Shown: positions 14,501 to 59,126 of the stretch, in pieces
How the letters are laid out: each line of letters starts with the position of its first letter
Numbering within the stretch: position 1 is the first letter of the stretch
NCBI GenBank assembly: GCA_044358835.1
Contig: JBIKNF010000009.1
Coordinates: 6,174-70,173 of the forward strand
DNA from: Vampirovibrionales bacterium
GTDB taxonomy: Bacteria > Cyanobacteriota > Vampirovibrionia > Vampirovibrionales > JAJTHC01
Reading direction: 5' to 3'
Length of the DNA stretch: 64,000 nucleotides
Notes under the pieces: generated by a model
Seen by the model: the letters and a program-made list of their open reading frames with translations, nothing else
Database searches by the model: none
Told to the model about the DNA's origin: nothing
Program-made: the position numbers and the translations under genes

Positions 14501-14607
14501 TGCGTTTGCACGTCTTCAAGGCAGATGTATCGCTGGGTGGTGGGGGGGGCATCGTGCAGGGCAGGCATGGGGGGTCTCTTGCGTTTGTGGGGAGAGTACC
14601 CTTCCAT
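11599..14607 (-). CDS. uvrA: Excinuclease ABC subunit A
   Basis: 1002 aa with two ABC ATPase modules (Walker A 'GISGSGKSSL', 'GMSGSGKSTL' and LSGGE signatures) and zinc-finger Cys clusters. An alternative start is at 14568 ('MPALHD'). Confidence 0.95.
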   Translation of the reverse strand: MEGYSPHKRKRPPMPALHDAPPTTQRYICLEDVQTHNLKGFSLNIPKHQLVVFTGISGSGKSSLVFDTLYSEAQRRYMNTLSDYAQQFMGKQEKAPVRTLTGLSPAIAIEQKTTLYSPRSTVGTVTNIMDYLRVLFAKAGRAYCPQCGCNVQPQRLAQMLERIKKLPEATRIQILSPLIRGRKGDYGALFEQLRKEGFARAYVDGEMLDLDELPDDFKLERYKVHHIDAVVDRIVLRHQKDATSLRLEQAVSKAVQRSGGYLRVLSQEPHHDKEKEALMSTFMACHACDLDFGEMAPRLFSFNSPYGACVTCKGTGHQLHIDESTLIKEPSLSLKDGAMPALAYLLWGKHKRVLTAFEKYLHLPVSKPWKAWNKAEKHLFFYGKEKATSAFVPIAEINYEDSPDDWENFFENFEGILPLLRLKANTGGLTSQAYFRQFTLEDDCPDCDGLRLKPFSLAVRLGDTLTWKALSAMSLSQAYDALSALDPELTATEALIAQTPLKEVLVRLQFLKNVGVPYLTLGRRASTLSGGEAQRIRLASQLGSGLSGVMYVLDEPSIGLHAHNNQQLIHTLKELRDKGNTVLVVEHDEELIRQADYVVDIGPRAGIHGGELVFAGLASELEQQANSVTGDYLAGRRRIEMNTTKKLPKPEKTVRLKGCTHHNLKNLNITLPLGKMVTITGMSGSGKSTLLFDCLLPYVEQYIQATMGSYGRKKDIPLKDLNLTMPKGVKAIEGIEQIDKLVVVDQSPIGRTSRSNPATYTGMFDAIRNLYANTLEAKAQGLSASHFSFNVKGGRCETCKGAGKTTLSVGMLPDAELLCQTCDGKRFKPEILRVRYKGKNIYELLETPIEAAIEIFDSHPTLGQQLQLLCDVGLGYLALGQGAPLLSGGEAQRLKLATDLMRKPSGHTLYLFDEPSIGLHWHDLHLFIDVVKRLVEKGHTVLTIEHQLDYIAASDWVIDLGPEGGEKGGRVLAEGTPVQVASVAESLTGHYLHEHLHRTVIH

Positions 14608-15302
14608 TATACACCAAACCGATTAAGCCATTGTTTTAGCCAGTTGCATATTTTACTTTCCATGCCATTACCCTTTTTATCTGATTCGAAGCTACTTTCT
14701 AATGTTTCTCTTCCCATTACAAAATCAACAAGGTGGTTCATTCTTTCCTCAGCACTTCCTTTGATGCCTTTATAAGGACTTTGTATCAGTTGTTCCAGTT
14801 CACTTAGGTTTATCTGTTCTACTTCTTCATTTGACAATGATTCTCTTAGAGCCGTTACATTAGCTTGCACAGATTTTCCTAAATTGCTTAAGCTATCTAG
14901 TAAATTATTATTTTGTAAAAAAGTTGTTAATTTATTTGGATCATCTGTATTTTCTGGGAAATAGATTACAGTCGAAGATGCATTTTGGAGACTTCCCCCC
15001 ATTTCACTAATATCCTTTAGTACATTAAAACATGCTTCTATACATCTCCTCTGTCCTTCAACTTCTAGAATATCAAATACAAAAGGAGACTTTTCTAGTC
15101 CCTCCAATAGATTTATTATTTCATCAGGAATGATTTCTGGAGGGTGTGCCTTTATTACTTCGCGCATAAATGCACCAGTCAAACGGCCGGAACGTTGATT
15201 CGCGTGTGGGCAAGGCACTGGGGCATGTGCCGTGTGGGAAGTGGCAGGGGTGCTTCTTAAAGCTATACTTTTGTTATGGGGGGGGGTTAGTGGGCTTAAC
15301 AT
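14607..15302 (-). CDS. Hypothetical protein, AT-rich, stop overlapping the uvrA start (TAATG)
   Basis: 231-aa ORF. The N-terminal region is Pro/His/Ala-rich, the rest is acidic and Leu-rich. A G9/C9 homopolymer lies at codons 6-8. The true start may be the internal 'MREVIKA'. Confidence 0.4.
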   Translation of the reverse strand: MLSPLTPPHNKSIALRSTPATSHTAHAPVPCPHANQRSGRLTGAFMREVIKAHPPEIIPDEIINLLEGLEKSPFVFDILEVEGQRRCIEACFNVLKDISEMGGSLQNASSTVIYFPENTDDPNKLTTFLQNNNLLDSLSNLGKSVQANVTALRESLSNEEVEQINLSELEQLIQSPYKGIKGSAEERMNHLVDFVMGRETLESSFESDKKGNGMESKICNWLKQWLNRFGV

Positions 15303-27631: not shown

Positions 27632-28350
27632 TGCACGGGAACCTTTGCTTCAAGTGGACGTAACACAAGATCTTCAACAATTGCGCCGTCTTTCATGCGA
27701 ATGATGCGATCCGCTAGGCGAGCCGCGTCTTCGCTGTGGGTCACCATGACCACGGTGGCCCCCAATTCACGGCATCTTTGCATGAGCACGCCCAAGACTT
27801 GCGCGCCGTTTTGACTGTCGAGGTTGCCAGTGGGTTCATCTGCCAGAATGAGGGGGGGGTGATGTACGGTGGCTCTGGCAATGGCGACGCGTTGCATTTG
27901 CCCACCTGAAAGTTGTGAGGGAAATTGTGACGCCAAGGCTTCAATCCCGACGCTTTTGAGGGCATTCATGACCCGTTCTTTGGCTTGTTTGGGGGGAATG
28001 CCGTTTAAATCCAGCGGAAGTTGAACATTTTCAGCCACCGAGAGCGTGGGTAATAAATTAAAAAATTGAAACACATAACCCACCGTTTTTCTGCGGAACG
28101 CTGCCTTTTCAGCTTCGCTTAAAAAAGCCAAGGCGTGGCCTTCCACCAGAACTTCGCCTGTTGTTGGGGTATCCATCGCGCCGATGAGGTTGAGTAGCGT
28201 TGATTTACCGCACCCACTAGATCCCATAATGGCGACAAACTGCCCTTGTGGAATATGCAAACTAAGATCATTTAAAACCAGCGGGCTTTTCGGATCGTAT
28301 TGTTTCGACAGGTGCAAAAGATCAATGGCGTTCATGGGCGGGTCTTTCAT
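27628..28350 (-). CDS. ABC transporter ATP-binding protein (LolD/MacB-type)
   Basis: Walker A 'GSSGCGKSTL', signature 'LSGGQMQRVAIARA', Walker B 'ILADEPTGNLD'. Confidence 0.9.
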   Translation of the reverse strand: MKDPPMNAIDLLHLSKQYDPKSPLVLNDLSLHIPQGQFVAIMGSSGCGKSTLLNLIGAMDTPTTGEVLVEGHALAFLSEAEKAAFRRKTVGYVFQFFNLLPTLSVAENVQLPLDLNGIPPKQAKERVMNALKSVGIEALASQFPSQLSGGQMQRVAIARATVHHPPLILADEPTGNLDSQNGAQVLGVLMQRCRELGATVVMVTHSEDAARLADRIIRMKDGAIVEDLVLRPLEAKVPVQ

Positions 28351-42218: not shown

Positions 42219-42356
42219 GTCTTTTTTGGGTGAAAAACATCAAAAAGGCTACCATGCTTAAAAATCGTGTGTTTTAAGCACTGGGTTAAGAAGGCTTACT
42301 TTGCTATACTAAATGGAGTTGAACAAAGCGTAAAAAAGGAAAGAAGAAGAAGACTT

Positions 42357-42638
42357 ATGGAACATACCAACCTAATGAACGCCTTATTGGCCTCTTCGCC
42401 TTGGCAGCTTGGCCTGTGGATGAGTGCCTGTGGGGTGGGCGTACTTTCTTGGTTACTAACGCTGAAAGTTTTTGTGTCTTACGGGGAACATAATGAACTC
42501 AAAGCTTATGTGGCTGAACATTACCTGAAACGAAGTGAAATTCAAACGCACTTGAATGATTTACATCAACAATTGCAGTCCATGCAACAACAGTTGAATC
42601 TCATGCAACAGGCCTTGTATCGTGCGTTGAACAAATAA
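42357..42638 (+). CDS. Small hypothetical protein: one TM segment plus Gln-rich coiled coil
   Basis: Start at 42357 with a strong 'aaaaaaggaaag' RBS. 'LQSMQQQLNLMQQALYRAL'. Lies upstream of fliW-csrA. Confidence 0.4.
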   Translation: MEHTNLMNALLASSPWQLGLWMSACGVGVLSWLLTLKVFVSYGEHNELKAYVAEHYLKRSEIQTHLNDLHQQLQSMQQQLNLMQQALYRALNK

Positions 42639-42793: not shown

Positions 42794-43315
42794 ATGACTA
42801 TGTCTCCCCCATTACGTCAATTCCAAACGGAACGATTTGGTGCCGTTAGCGTGGATGAAGCCTCTATCATTACGTTTGTACAACCCATTTTGGGCTTTGA
42901 TTTGCTCAAAGAGTTTGCTTTGTTTGATCATGATGAGGATTCGCCCTTTAAATGGTTACAGTCTTTAGAAGACCCTACGTTGGCGTTTGTGGTGACGAAC
43001 CCCACGTTGTTTGGGCATAATTATGAGTTTAACTTGCCTCAAGAAGCGTGTTCGATTCTAAACATTCAACGTGCGGAAGAGGCTCAAGTCCTTACCTTGG
43101 TGACGGTTCCTGAAGAAAATCCCTTACACATGACGGCGAATTTTTTAGGTCCCCTTGTTTTTCATAGTGAAACCCGTCAGGCGATGCAACTTATTTTAGC
43201 AGACCCTGAAACGTATGGGACAAAAGTACGACTCATTCCTGATGAAGCCATCGATGCGGACGGTTCCATTCAACTTGAAGTGATTCGAAGCAAGCAAACG
43301 CAAGTGAACTCCTAA
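42794..43315 (+). CDS. fliW: Flagellar assembly factor FliW
   Basis: 'FQTERFGAVSVDEASIITFVQPILGFDLLKEFALF...DSPFKWLQSLEDPTLAFVVTNP' is the canonical FliW. Confidence 0.85.
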   Translation: MTMSPPLRQFQTERFGAVSVDEASIITFVQPILGFDLLKEFALFDHDEDSPFKWLQSLEDPTLAFVVTNPTLFGHNYEFNLPQEACSILNIQRAEEAQVLTLVTVPEENPLHMTANFLGPLVFHSETRQAMQLILADPETYGTKVRLIPDEAIDADGSIQLEVIRSKQTQVNS

Positions 43316-43363: not shown

Positions 43364-43642
43364 ATGCTTGTTTTGAGCCGTAAATTGGGTGAAAAAATTG
43401 TCATAGACAATGAAGTTTTTGTCACCATATTGGATGTACGTGGGGATGTCGTGAAGCTTGGTGTGGAAGCCCCCAAACACGTGATGGTGCATCGTGAAGA
43501 AATTTATAAAGAAATCGTGGTCAGCAATAAGCAGGCTCAACAAAAGGCGAATACTCACCCTTCAGTCAGTGACACCCTAACTAAAGTGACCACCCTTTCT
43601 AAAAAAGGGGCTCCTCCTAAAATCAATCAAAATAGCCAGTGA
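43364..43642 (+). CDS. csrA: Carbon storage regulator CsrA with C-terminal extension
   Basis: '[48 protein letters not shown]'. Confidence 0.9.
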
Positions 43643-43656
43643 TCGTCTTTTAAGGG

Positions 43657-44418
43657 GTGAGATTTATGTTTACACGAACGTCAGCCAAAGAAGTGGCCTT
43701 ACTCCACTGGGACGATCTGCTACCTGCCCGCCACGCCCTCTTTGTTGAAAAGGATGCTCGTAAGGCCCTCCAGTTGTTGCCGATTGATCCTTTGGGGGGG
43801 GGGGTATCTAGTCAAAGTATCCCTTTTCAGAATGCTTTGATTGATGTAGCCAGTCAAGCTTATCTTCAAACGGGGCAACTCAAAGAAGCCACCCTACTAT
43901 GGAAACGATATGGACGTTTTGAACAAGCCTGTTTGGGCTTTATTTGTATGCGACAATATCAACCCGCACGAGAAATGATTGCTTCCTTAACCCCTAAGCG
44001 ACAGGCATATTGGGCAGAAGTGGTGTTTCGAGCGTGTAGTAATCAGTTGAATGTATGGCCGAGTTTCCTGCACTTACGTAACCGATTAGAAGGCGACTTG
44101 ATGCTGATGTTTCGCTTTGACGCGCTAGACTGCATGGAACAAGTGATGGCTTACCTCAATAGTTTTGCCTTACTAAACCCTGAAGTCTTTAAGCTGGTGG
44201 GGCGTGTGTTTACGACCAATGGTTTATTGCAACAGGCGTATTTTTTACTGCAACGTAGTTTGGAAAAAAATCCGCTGGATCCTGAAAATTATTTTCACTT
44301 GGGGCAGTTGTACCTTGAAATGAAACAGCGTCACAAGGCCAAGCTGATGTTACGGCAAGCCCTTTCAATCAATGCAGAATATACCCCTGTTCAGGACTTG
44401 TTGGCATCGTTGAAGTAA
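43657..44418 (+). CDS. Hypothetical TPR-like protein containing an in-frame G11 homopolymer
   Basis: 253 aa, helical repeats. G11 at 43794..43804 encodes 'LGGGV'. Confidence 0.5.
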
Positions 44419-44687
44419 GCGTCAATAGCTTGTGCCAGTGCGATGTCTTTGTCAGAAAGACCGCCTGAATCGTGTGTGCTGAGTTGAATGTGGACACGAT
44501 TGTAGACGTTCGACCAATTCGGGTGATGATCCATGGCTTCAGCGTGCAAGGCGACATAGCTCATAAACGCCCAAGCGTGTTTAAAATCGGGGAATTGAAA
44601 AGTCTTTTCAATAGAAGAGACAGGCGTCTTTACCAAGTGCCAGCCATCTAGCGATTCCACCGCCAATTCGAGTTCGTGAACTATCAT
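44391..44687 (-). CDS. Pterin-4a-carbinolamine dehydratase
   Basis: 98 aa. '[24 protein letters not shown]' is the PCD signature. Confidence 0.8.
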
Positions 44688-45406
44688 GTAATACTCCCTT
44701 TTAATGTATTAAATACCTCAATAATCGCCCTGCGATGCACCGGCCACAAGTCGTTCATTCGCTCGCCTTCAGGCAGTTCCACCGTCAACACAGGGATGCC
44801 TCGCTCTACCCCCGCCCAGTTGCCAAACGATCCTGGTGTGGGGTAGCCAATGCTGGCTTCAACAGGGTAGTCACAAGCGTGGGCGTAAAGTGTCGCCAGT
44901 TCTTGGGTTTGAGGCAAGGGCCCGTCGTAATTAATGAGGCGATACGGCGTGTGGTAGCTCACAATCAACGTGGGGGTGGTGTTGTTTACCAGTTGAGCGA
45001 TGTGCCGGCTTTCAGGTTCGCTAAAGGGGAGCGTCCCTCCATGGTAGGGATCTTCAGGCGAAGAGGCTTGCCAGTTGTGGGTTTCAAAATTTCGGTTTAG
45101 GTCGACGTCACGCTTGTTTTTTCGGGTCTTGCGCAATAAGCCGTCAGGGTTTACGATGGGCACAACGCCCACTCGCAACCCTTCACCTAGCGTGGCATCA
45201 TGATGCAAATCGTGCAGGAGCCGAAAGCAAAGTTCTGCCGATTCAGGCTCATCCCCGTGAAAGGCCCCTAAAAATAAGGCATCTAGGGGGGGGGTGTTTT
45301 CTAAAGAAGAAAAGGGGGGGCAGGCTTGTACGTCAAAATGGTAAAAATCCACACGCAGGCCTTGCACTGAATGCCCTAAACACAAATGCTGAACGTTGTT
45401 TCGCAT
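44684..45406 (-). CDS. M14-type zinc carboxypeptidase-like protein (MpaA / succinylglutamate desuccinylase-aspartoacylase superfamily)
   Basis: 240 aa. Zn-ligand context '[10 protein letters not shown]', 'DLNRNF', and a downstream His. Overlaps the PCD gene start by 4 nt. Confidence 0.65.
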
Positions 45407-45567: not shown

Positions 45568-45912
45568 TTAAATGATTTTTTGATCTAAAAGGCTTTGAGC
45601 AAGACGTTCGGAATCAAGGGAATCTAGGTAAGCGTTCAATCCTTCAGGGCTTTGGAATTGGGTTTTTAATTCAGCAAGGCGTTCGTTGGGAAGGACTGCT
45701 TGGGCTTGAAGCTTACGAAGGAACTTGAGGGTTTCCGCTTCAGAAGAAACTTTGCTTTTGGCTTCTTCAGAAATACTGATGTTTTCAGTGCTTTTTTCTT
45801 CTTGAAGGGAAGCGGGGGTCAATTTCACTAATGAATCTGCTTGGACTGGTGTCAACCGAACGGTTGAACTGGTGGCTGAACTCAAGCGTGAAGATTGAAT
45901 GGAATCTACCAT
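45568..45912 (-). CDS. flgM: Anti-sigma-28 factor FlgM-like
   Basis: 114 aa, Ser/Thr-rich N-half. The C-terminal 'ERLAELKTQFQSPEGLNAYLDSLDSERLAQSLLD' parallels Salmonella FlgM '[27 protein letters not shown]'. Confidence 0.55.
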   Translation of the reverse strand: MVDSIQSSRLSSATSSTVRLTPVQADSLVKLTPASLQEEKSTENISISEEAKSKVSSEAETLKFLRKLQAQAVLPNERLAELKTQFQSPEGLNAYLDSLDSERLAQSLLDQKII

Positions 45913-54793: not shown

Positions 54794-54934
54794 CTTATTC
54801 ACAAACATTCGACGATGAAGAGAGATACTTAATTTCAAATCTAAGTTTAGAAAACAAATCTTTTGTTTTATGCGCTTAAATTTGATTGATTTTGTGTGAA
54901 AACAAACCAAGAGAGAAAAGGAGAGAACCCCACC

Positions 54935-55795
54935 ATGGGTATTATTATTAACACCAACATGCAGTCTATTAGTTCACAACGTTTATTAAACGTCAACACC
55001 ATGCACTTGGCCAGAAGCTACGAGAAATTATCGTCAGGCTTGAAAATTAATCGTTCCAGCGATGACGCGGCAGGACTGCAAATTTCAGAACGCTTACGTT
55101 CACAAATCCGAGGTTCCCAACGTGCTTTAGACAACACCCAAGACGGTGTCAACGTCTTAAGCGTTGTGGATGGCACCTTCCAAACAGTCGTAGAAAACCT
55201 TCAACGTATGCGAGAACTCAGTGTTCAAGGTGCAAACGACTCTAACTCTTCCCAAGAACGTAGTGCGATCAATATTGAAATCTCTCAGCTTTCGGCAGAT
55301 TTAAACCGAATCGCCACAGCCACGCAATTCAACAAACGCAACTTACTTAATGGGTCCATCACCAATTATTACCTTCAGGTAGGTGCCAATTCAAATTCTC
55401 AATTAGATCGTATTGATATTGCTAATGTGGGTGGCATAAATCCCTTTAGTAGTATCGCTGCTTCAGCCTTGTTTAATCTACCCGCAGGGTCATCACTTCG
55501 TGTGAACACGAACAGTTCTGCACTGAATACCATAAGTAAAATTGATACCGCTCTTGCTCGCATTGGTAATCGAAGAGCTACTTTAGGTGCGATGATTAAT
55601 CGCTTAGAATCCAGCAGTAAGAATTTAAATATCGCGGTTGAAAATCTCTCTGCATCAGAATCTCGAATTCGCAATGCGGATATTGCCAAGGAATCGGCCG
55701 AAATGACCAAACATCAAATTTTGCAACAGGCAGCGGCTCAAGTCTTGTCTCAAGCAAATCAATTGCCTCAGCTAGCCTTGAAGTTGTTGCAATAG
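54935..55795 (+). CDS. fliC: Flagellin (short, ~286 aa)
   Basis: Start at 54935 with an 'aaaggagag' RBS. N-terminal 'MGIIINTNMQSISSQRLLNVN...LSSGLKINRSSDDAAGLQISERL'. C-terminal 'ATLGAMINRLESS...ESRIRNADIAKESAEMTKHQILQQAAAQVLSQANQLPQLALKLLQ'. Confidence 0.9.
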   Translation: MGIIINTNMQSISSQRLLNVNTMHLARSYEKLSSGLKINRSSDDAAGLQISERLRSQIRGSQRALDNTQDGVNVLSVVDGTFQTVVENLQRMRELSVQGANDSNSSQERSAINIEISQLSADLNRIATATQFNKRNLLNGSITNYYLQVGANSNSQLDRIDIANVGGINPFSSIAASALFNLPAGSSLRVNTNSSALNTISKIDTALARIGNRRATLGAMINRLESSSKNLNIAVENLSASESRIRNADIAKESAEMTKHQILQQAAAQVLSQANQLPQLALKLLQ

Positions 55796-55870
55796 CCTGT
55801 TTAAGTCTTTTTCTCTCTGCCTATTTTTCCTCTTTCTTTTTACTTTCCCTCTCTCTCTCTAAAATAAACC

Positions 55871-55909
55871 TTCCCCCTTCTTTTTTAAGACGGGGGGTAT
55901 TTTTTTGTT
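55871..55909 (+). terminator. Rho-independent terminator after flagellin
   Basis: 'ttcccccttctt tttt aagacgggggg' hairpin followed by 'tattttttt'. Confidence 0.5.
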
Positions 55910-56285
55910 GGTTTTTCTATAGTGTTTGCTAGATAAAACGGTCTAGGGTCTTTTCGTTGCCGCGACGATTTTTTTTTGCTTGCTTATGGTCGTTTGTGTA
56001 CACACCCGCACAAAAAACCGAGGCGCTTAGAATAGCCTCATCGTCTGTTTCATCTTTCAAACACTATAAAAGGGGATAAAGAGGTAAAAATGGCCTAATT
56101 TCCGACACACAGAATACCCTTTTTTGACACACGAAAGTCTATTTTTTACTCGATTTTCAAGGAGTTTGCTGGGTTGTGAAGACCTGTTGAAAAAAGCCAA
56201 TCTTTTTTAGTACAACCTATTTTTAAGTCCTTTGCCCAGTGGCTAAACCCCACTATTTTTGGGATTTCTAGCTTCGTTTTGAGCG

Positions 56286-58956: not shown

Positions 58957-59126
58957 GTATCCGATAGAGACTTTTCCCTCTATTCAGGGGGCTTCTGAAA
59001 AAATTAATCATTCCCTTTAGCAAAACGTGGTATACTCAATTTAGTTTAAAAGTTCAAGAAATACAGTTTCCCACCAAACAATCTCTTTCTACGTTTACCC
59101 CCCCCCCAGCTTCGGAGAACACTGCC

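Follow-up and report, generated by a model that had tools for sequence, protein, structure and literature searches.

The longest homopolymer of the 64 kb window (the window being the whole stretch of DNA that was analysed) is a run of 11 G at 43794–43804, with the sequence CCTTTGGGGGGGGGGGTATC, which sits in the context CCTTT-G11-TATCTAG. It is in frame and encodes Leu-Gly-Gly-Gly-Val within the open reading frame (ORF) 43657..44418. A sequence-only reading made earlier had described this run as lying in a TPR-like gene downstream of fliW and csrA, and these points were borne out: the run and its translation are read directly from the window sequence, Pfam TPR matches fall in the C-terminal part of the ORF, and Pfam identifies FliW and CsrA directly upstream on the same strand. 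The features of the locus are as follows.

42794..43315, + strand: fliW, 173 amino acids (PF02623, E = 3e-36; synteny)
43364..43642, + strand: csrA, 92 amino acids (PF02599, E = 1.4e-22; synteny conserved in all lineages fetched)
43654..43661, + strand: G-rich Shine–Dalgarno region of the TPR gene, GGGGTGAG
43666..44418, + strand: TPR-solenoid gene, 250 amino acids, ATG start, the third gene after fliW and csrA
43794..43804, + strand: G11 homopolymer, in frame, running from the third base of the Leu43 codon through the codons of Gly44–46 to the first base of the Val47 codon

The end and the frame of the ORF as it was first drawn stand, but its start does not: ATG 43666 is the start in all homologues and in all public gene calls, and the alternative start, GTG 43657, is probably not used. 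The distance from the ATG to the run is 128 nt, which places the run in the 5′ fifth of the gene; it is thus a G/C homopolymer of the kind (∼8 or more nucleotides, inside an ORF or its expression signals) at which slippage can alter a product. A gain or loss of one nucleotide had been expected to truncate the protein after ∼50 residues, and in silico G10 gives a product of 57 amino acids and G12 one of 48. The corresponding products for G9 and G13 are 47 and 58 amino acids, while G8 and G14 keep the TPR frame. In silico, a change in repeat length therefore switches expression by frameshift truncation.

The fliW and csrA genes are adjacent on the same strand, 48 nt apart, and constitute a FliW–CsrA module. 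The csrA stop codon is followed after a 23 nt spacer by the TPR ATG; no terminator-like site was found in this spacer, and the scans for promoters and terminators did not rise above background. Upstream of the TPR gene, its strand carries, in order, a gene for a 123-residue hypothetical protein, fliW and csrA, and on its other side a convergent pterin-4a-carbinolamine dehydratase gene overlaps its 3′ end. All of the lineages fetched, down to 79% protein identity, have the order fliW, csrA, TPR gene, convergent dehydratase, and from this synteny it is reasonable to infer that the TPR protein is linked to the FliW–CsrA motility module. Two genes downstream of the TPR gene, a 114-residue ORF (45568–45912, − strand) has a weak match to FlgM (anti-sigma-28; E = 0.012, below the cut-off); its position is conserved in all lineages and it may be a further motility-regulatory gene. 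An Rfam scan of the window returned three tRNAs only.

Two candidate control elements at the TPR start were considered and dropped. A predicted hairpin that would sequester the Shine–Dalgarno sequence (z = −2.2) has a weak consensus fold across seven lineages, with compensatory change in two of 21 pairs and an unfavourable covariation term (+1.19). Possible CsrA-binding GGA motifs at the ribosome-binding site (RBS) are, by inspection, inconsistent across lineages.

The TPR protein and the loop encoded by the run

The Pfam families TPR_19, TPR_8, TPR_14 and TPR_2 all exceed their cut-offs over residues 176–252 of the ORF. AlphaFold (AF2), given 44 members of the family, predicts with high confidence a solenoid made up entirely of helices, 15 in number (pLDDT 95.2, pTM 0.87), and the best Foldseek matches of this model are consensus TPR, OGT and APC TPR proteins, all of them generic. 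Pfam, the AF2 model and Foldseek together allow us to classify this protein as a TPR protein, with degenerate 34-residue helix–turn–helix repeats arranged as an alpha-solenoid. A PDB sequence search, NCBIfam and Foldseek gave generic TPR matches only and no functional family. There are 13 close homologues; the nearest that is named comes from a Vampirovibrionales metagenome-assembled genome (MAG), and a further match was found in a Lake Mendota Vampirovibrionales MAG in a genome collection. A profile search widened this set to a family of proteins of ∼220–280 amino acids that align across almost their full length.

Residues 37–51 form a loop in the AF2 model, and this loop contains Gly44–46. 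The segment encoded by G11 is the least conserved, length-variable part of the 44-sequence family alignment. As both the alignment and the model place the site in a length-variable loop, Gly-Gly-Gly is tolerated there. The version of the protein at one locus (L015) has 243 amino acids; this form was considered as a tract variant and rejected, as it results from a 21 nt in-frame deletion at 44284 that is unrelated to G11.

The tract across lineages

Retrieval with anchors that do not depend on the reading frame of the TPR gene (CsrA and the pterin dehydratase) gave ∼25 loci. In lineage A, to which the window belongs, JGI contig Ga0453894_0000022 and the Logan contigs of SRR11639491 are 100% identical to the window over 5–21 kb, G11 included. 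The uninterrupted G11 is carried by only ∼2–3 assemblies, possibly from the same or related samples. Lineage B differs from the window by ∼0.7–1.3% and is represented by many assemblies from other samples. Here the tract reads TTT-G9-AG-TA: a synonymous GGG-to-GGA change leaves nine as the longest uninterrupted run and the protein is identical. The G9AG form is common to at least six distinct B haplotypes from at least ten samples. Among the ∼25 loci, all of the A type are T3G11 and all of the B type are T3G9AG, with base 43803 (G in A, A in B) the sole difference between the two inside the tract. Lineages A, B1 and B2 form a near-trichotomy, and the change at 43803 is either a lengthening in A or an interruption in B.

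Lineage C, which is ∼6% divergent, has CCT TTT TTT GGG GGG CTA (PFFGGL), i.e. T7G6, so that the segment of T plus G is 14 nt long in A, B and C alike. More distant lineages are without the run and have CTA GAA GTA GAA or TTT TTG GTG GAT at this position.

At the consensus level, the ∼25 assemblies contain neither an out-of-frame nor a ±3 allele of the tract. Scans of a metagenomic contig collection with the tract flanks and with a conserved 35 nt word downstream gave no match, this collection evidently being without the samples concerned. We also looked up ten predicted variant products by exact match among ∼15 billion predicted proteins (G9, G10, G12 and G13 of lineage A, G8AG and G10AG of lineage B and, for both protein backgrounds, the full-length ±3 forms), and none was present. 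The 90% protein cluster of the TPR protein has no N-terminal fragment among its members. Two short proteins, P0016 (156 amino acids) and P0017 (147 amino acids), were considered as restart products of a frameshift and rejected, as they lie 66 and 9 nt from contig ends and are edge truncations; another short cluster member, P0018, begins mid-sequence, as expected at a contig edge.

The comparison of tract length among strains, which had been proposed as a check on the idea of a classic phase-variation switch, thus shows no length variation at the consensus level. The tract is invariant and in frame in every A and B assembly and is interrupted in B, which speaks against that idea. ON and OFF lengths do not occur together among the strains or populations represented by these ∼25 consensus loci, and the repeat is not maintained across related strains, the uninterrupted run being confined to lineage A. 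Consensus assemblies are blind to minority OFF sub-populations and would not reveal switching at 1e-4 to 1e-2.

Run statistics and slippage at other sites

The window holds 16, eight, four, two and one G/C runs of at least 7, 8, 9, 10 and 11 nt, respectively. The expected numbers were computed analytically from the window's own run-extension probabilities under order-3 and order-5 Markov models, and are 5.2–6.6, 1.7–2.4, 0.55–0.89 and 0.18–0.33 for runs of at least 8, 9, 10 and 11 nt. The order-3 values are 5.2, 1.7, 0.55 and 0.18 (P of 0.09–0.16, for 64 kb only), and the probability of at least one run of the length of G11 is ∼0.16–0.28. On base composition alone (23% G), G11 would be very improbable. 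As the run counts decay geometrically, with 0.18–0.33 expected against one observed, G11 is the tail of the distribution and not an outlier. A/T runs of at least 8 nt are depleted in the window (seven observed against 15–18 expected; 17.6 at order 3) and G/C runs are not, an asymmetry in the homopolymer tolerance of this genome as far as the window data reach.

Coding sequence in the window has seven G/C runs of 8 nt or longer, and four of these fall within the first 20% of the ORF concerned. A C8 at 14542–14549 (− strand) occupies codons 6–9 of uvrA (989 amino acids in the JGI annotation), a long run right at the beginning of a DNA-repair gene. A C9 (on the coding strand) at 15278–15286 likewise occupies codons 6–9, in this case of a 231-residue hypothetical protein (ORF 14607–15302, − strand). 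This ORF is AT-rich and without a family match; it adjoins a tRNA gene and lies upstream of uvrA. By position, this ORF makes a more classical candidate for a contingency gene than the TPR gene does. The neighbouring M14 carboxypeptidase-like gene of the TPR gene (44684–45406, − strand) has a C9 at 45286–45294 and a C7 at 45314–45320 near its 5′ end; the C9, at approximately codons 38–40, does not differ between lineages A and B, and lineage C has just C5 at this place. In one locus (L013) the C7T4 boundary in the M14 gene has become C8T3 by a substitution (Phe to Leu), the same kind of boundary shift as between T3G11 and T7G6. The other coding G/C runs are a C8 in another TPR protein, a G8 at 27852 in an ABC ATPase and a C8 at 58623 near the end of ResB. 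Neither mutS nor mutL lies within the 64 kb window.

Length changes were observed at runs outside coding sequence. The Shine–Dalgarno region of the TPR gene reads AAGGGGTGAGATTTATG in the window, and the outgroups have GGGGGGAG there. In lineage C it is a pure G run (for example L001:4659–4668), of 9 nt in L003, L030 and L031, 10 nt in L001 and L002, and 11 nt in L027, L028, L029 and L032. There are therefore three lengths of the RBS run among five haplotypes that differ by 0.3–1.2%, with identical haplotypes having the same length. In sub-lineage B2 (L012:3285–3299 and L020, homologous to window position 43653) the same RBS carries a 5 nt tandem duplication, GGGGT GGGGT GAG. An intergenic C10 at 59098–59107, between ResB and a 72-residue ORF next to SecG, is C11 in the lineage B contigs L041 and L043 and C10 in L045, a separate ENA assembly that is 99.9% identical to the window.

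Slippage is thus active in this group where the reading frame is irrelevant, namely at the C10/C11 site and the lineage C RBS run. These two sites show that runs of 9–11 nt change length on a sub-strain timescale; the coding G9 and G11 are unchanged over comparable or larger divergence, which points to selection against frame-breaking alleles.

Interpretation of the G11 run

The reading that we consider probable, although by no means certain, is that G11 is a real, slippage-prone and frame-constrained homopolymer in a tolerant loop of a needed gene, where truncating variants arise but stay rare. Judged from the alignments, the run is young, not conserved and built by substitution: point substitutions in a G-rich stretch of codons would have produced a strain-specific G11. 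The stretch encodes a poorly conserved, length-variable loop (Gly44–46) of an otherwise conserved TPR-solenoid protein in a freshwater Vampirovibrionales population. Slipped-strand mispairing at G11 would then generate ±1 variants (48 or 57 amino acids) at an elevated rate, and these would be removed or kept rare because the TPR gene is needed, leaving the consensus tract always in frame. We infer both the elevated slippage rate at G11 itself and the purifying selection against OFF alleles of the TPR gene. At most, there would be an incidental low-level leak from ON to OFF, with no part for an evolved contingency switch. The presence of G/C runs of 8–9 nt in housekeeping genes too (uvrA, the ABC ATPase, ResB and the M14 gene) supports this reading of the run as a tolerated mutational liability.

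There is a parallel in the 7C tract of Mycobacterium tuberculosis glpK and in other incidental homopolymeric frameshift hotspots (10.1101/717272; PMC10334774). In M. tuberculosis, such variants are recurrent in isolates and linked to a phenotype. As in glpK, the homopolymer here lies in an ordinary cytoplasmic gene of an organism that is not known for a phasome, and the glpK frameshifts are minority alleles. The TPR gene differs from glpK in that frameshift variants were not observed in the assemblies.

A second reading, which we regard as rather unlikely although it deserves to be taken seriously, is that the run is a selected phase-variation switch. Reversible slippage at G11 would then turn production of the TPR protein ON in some sub-populations and OFF in others and so diversify a motility or regulatory phenotype linked to FliW–CsrA, with the RBS poly-G tuning expression in lineage C. 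In known phase-variable systems G/C runs are hypermutable from lengths well below 11, and motility regulators that vary in phase through homopolymers are established in Campylobacter jejuni (flgR and flgS), where reversible motile and non-motile variants have been demonstrated. The G11 run is well above the hypermutable length and within the typical length range of the contingency tracts of Campylobacter, Neisseria and Haemophilus. It also resembles the poly-G/C loci of C. jejuni, Neisseria and Haemophilus (such as hmbR, pgtA and the C. jejuni phasome genes) in being a G/C run of 8 or more nucleotides towards the 5′ end of its ORF, so that slippage by ±1 cuts the product short at an early point. 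The best argument for a switch combines this 5′ placement, which four of the seven coding runs of the window show and which is typical of contingency loci, with the two repeat-type changes (G9–G11 and the GGGGT duplication) at the RBS of the same gene elsewhere in the group. These repeated RBS changes could mean that TPR expression is repeatedly targeted by repeat-mediated variation. The variable length of the noncoding runs of 9–11 nt in these lineages and the conservation of the fliW–csrA–TPR synteny down to 79% protein identity also favour it.

The resemblance does not extend to how the tract behaves. In Campylobacter, Neisseria and Haemophilus, isolates with the ON length and isolates with an OFF length are both frequent, different strains share the same tracts and the genome as a whole is enriched in long G/C runs. 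For the TPR gene, by contrast, every assembly is ON, relatives have the tract in interrupted form or lack it, and the 64 kb window has no clear excess of runs over its own run statistics. No OFF or ±3 allele appears in any assembly examined or in the collection of ∼15 billion proteins, and a tract that is interrupted in the widespread lineage B and absent from lineage C and the outgroups gives no indication that selection maintains it. The TPR protein looks like a cytoplasmic scaffold, its N-terminus by inspection not resembling a signal peptide, and is not a typical surface, restriction-modification or glycosylation target. The likeness to flgR and flgS is that of a slippage-prone run in a gene of a flagellar regulatory neighbourhood; it differs in that no TPR variant was seen and in that a motility role is suggested by fliW–csrA synteny alone.

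For the RBS run, the closest known cases are the poly-G tracts upstream of the Treponema pallidum tpr genes (PMC7864442) and the promoter and RBS repeats of Neisseria (PMC5320596), both of which modulate expression. The G9–G11 in the 5′ untranslated Shine–Dalgarno region of lineage C is similar in that its length differs among haplotypes. Unlike those tracts, this run is itself SD-like and its distance from the ATG does not vary, so that changes in its length may be nearly neutral, and its length follows the haplotype, with no variation among identical haplotypes. It is conceivable, although we doubt it, that the TPR gene is under repeat control across these nonphotosynthetic, probably predatory relatives of cyanobacteria, with ON/OFF control in A and B through the intragenic G9–G11 and control in C through the Shine–Dalgarno G9–G11. 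Were this so, it would be the first contingency locus described in the Vampirovibrionales, with stochastic switching tied to the CsrA–FliW motility checkpoint; no report of phase variation or of homopolymeric tracts in the Vampirovibrionales was found in the literature searched. A switching tract would also extend homopolymer phase variation to an uncultivated freshwater Vampirovibrionales lineage and link it to a conserved, uncharacterized, putative TPR partner of the FliW–CsrA module.

An artefact of assembly at the homopolymer had been offered as the fallback explanation and is now largely excluded. In this case, the true sequence of lineage A would be G9AG, with the A at 43803 miscalled as G, or the length itself would be wrong. 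Illumina base calls are error-prone after long G runs, 43803 is the only position in the tract at which A and B differ, and the agreeing JGI and Logan assemblies may rest on the same reads. Nevertheless, two different assemblers gave an identical sequence over 5–21 kb, 43803 is one more strain SNP among hundreds of other A-versus-B SNPs in a consistent pattern, and the homologous codon position is G in lineage C too. The 14 nt segment length shared by the related lineages and the intact frame also argue against an error, and we consider an artefact improbable. Programmed recoding, in which transcriptional or translational slippage on the run deliberately yields a second, shorter product, is highly improbable: RNA polymerase can slip on long homopolymers and a TAG directly follows the run in the +1 frame, but the zero frame encodes the full conserved protein, the shifted frames add only 2–11 unconserved residues before a stop, close relatives keep the protein with the run absent or interrupted, and no conserved RNA structure was found nearby.

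If the run is a tolerated liability, as we favour, the locus serves mostly as a caution: a long homopolymer that lies in frame in a MAG may be genuine and yet frame-constrained, and a tract that is mutable can be told from one that is used as a switch by comparing public assemblies. The locus is also a clean natural test bed for slippage in metagenomic time series, with the coding G11 and G9AG of A and B, the RBS G9–G11 of C and the intergenic C10/C11.

Other differences between assemblies were noted around the locus. In one older assembly (JGI 3300008118), from a more distant lineage, csrA has a 100 nt deletion that leaves a 48-residue product (L038:2796–2942); the deletion may be real or a mis-assembly, and the csrA of L037, from another sample, encodes the full 93 amino acids. 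In the gene for the 123-residue hypothetical protein upstream of fliW (ORF 42267–42638), an in-frame AAG repeat is polymorphic at 42340, with an additional 3 nt in every B-lineage assembly; this falls in the Lys/Arg/Glu-rich N-terminal part of the protein. Just 3′ of the flagellin gene (∼54896–55795), at 55812–55977 of the window, there are three further length differences between lineages A and B, in an (AG)n repeat, in an A-rich stretch and in a T9 run.
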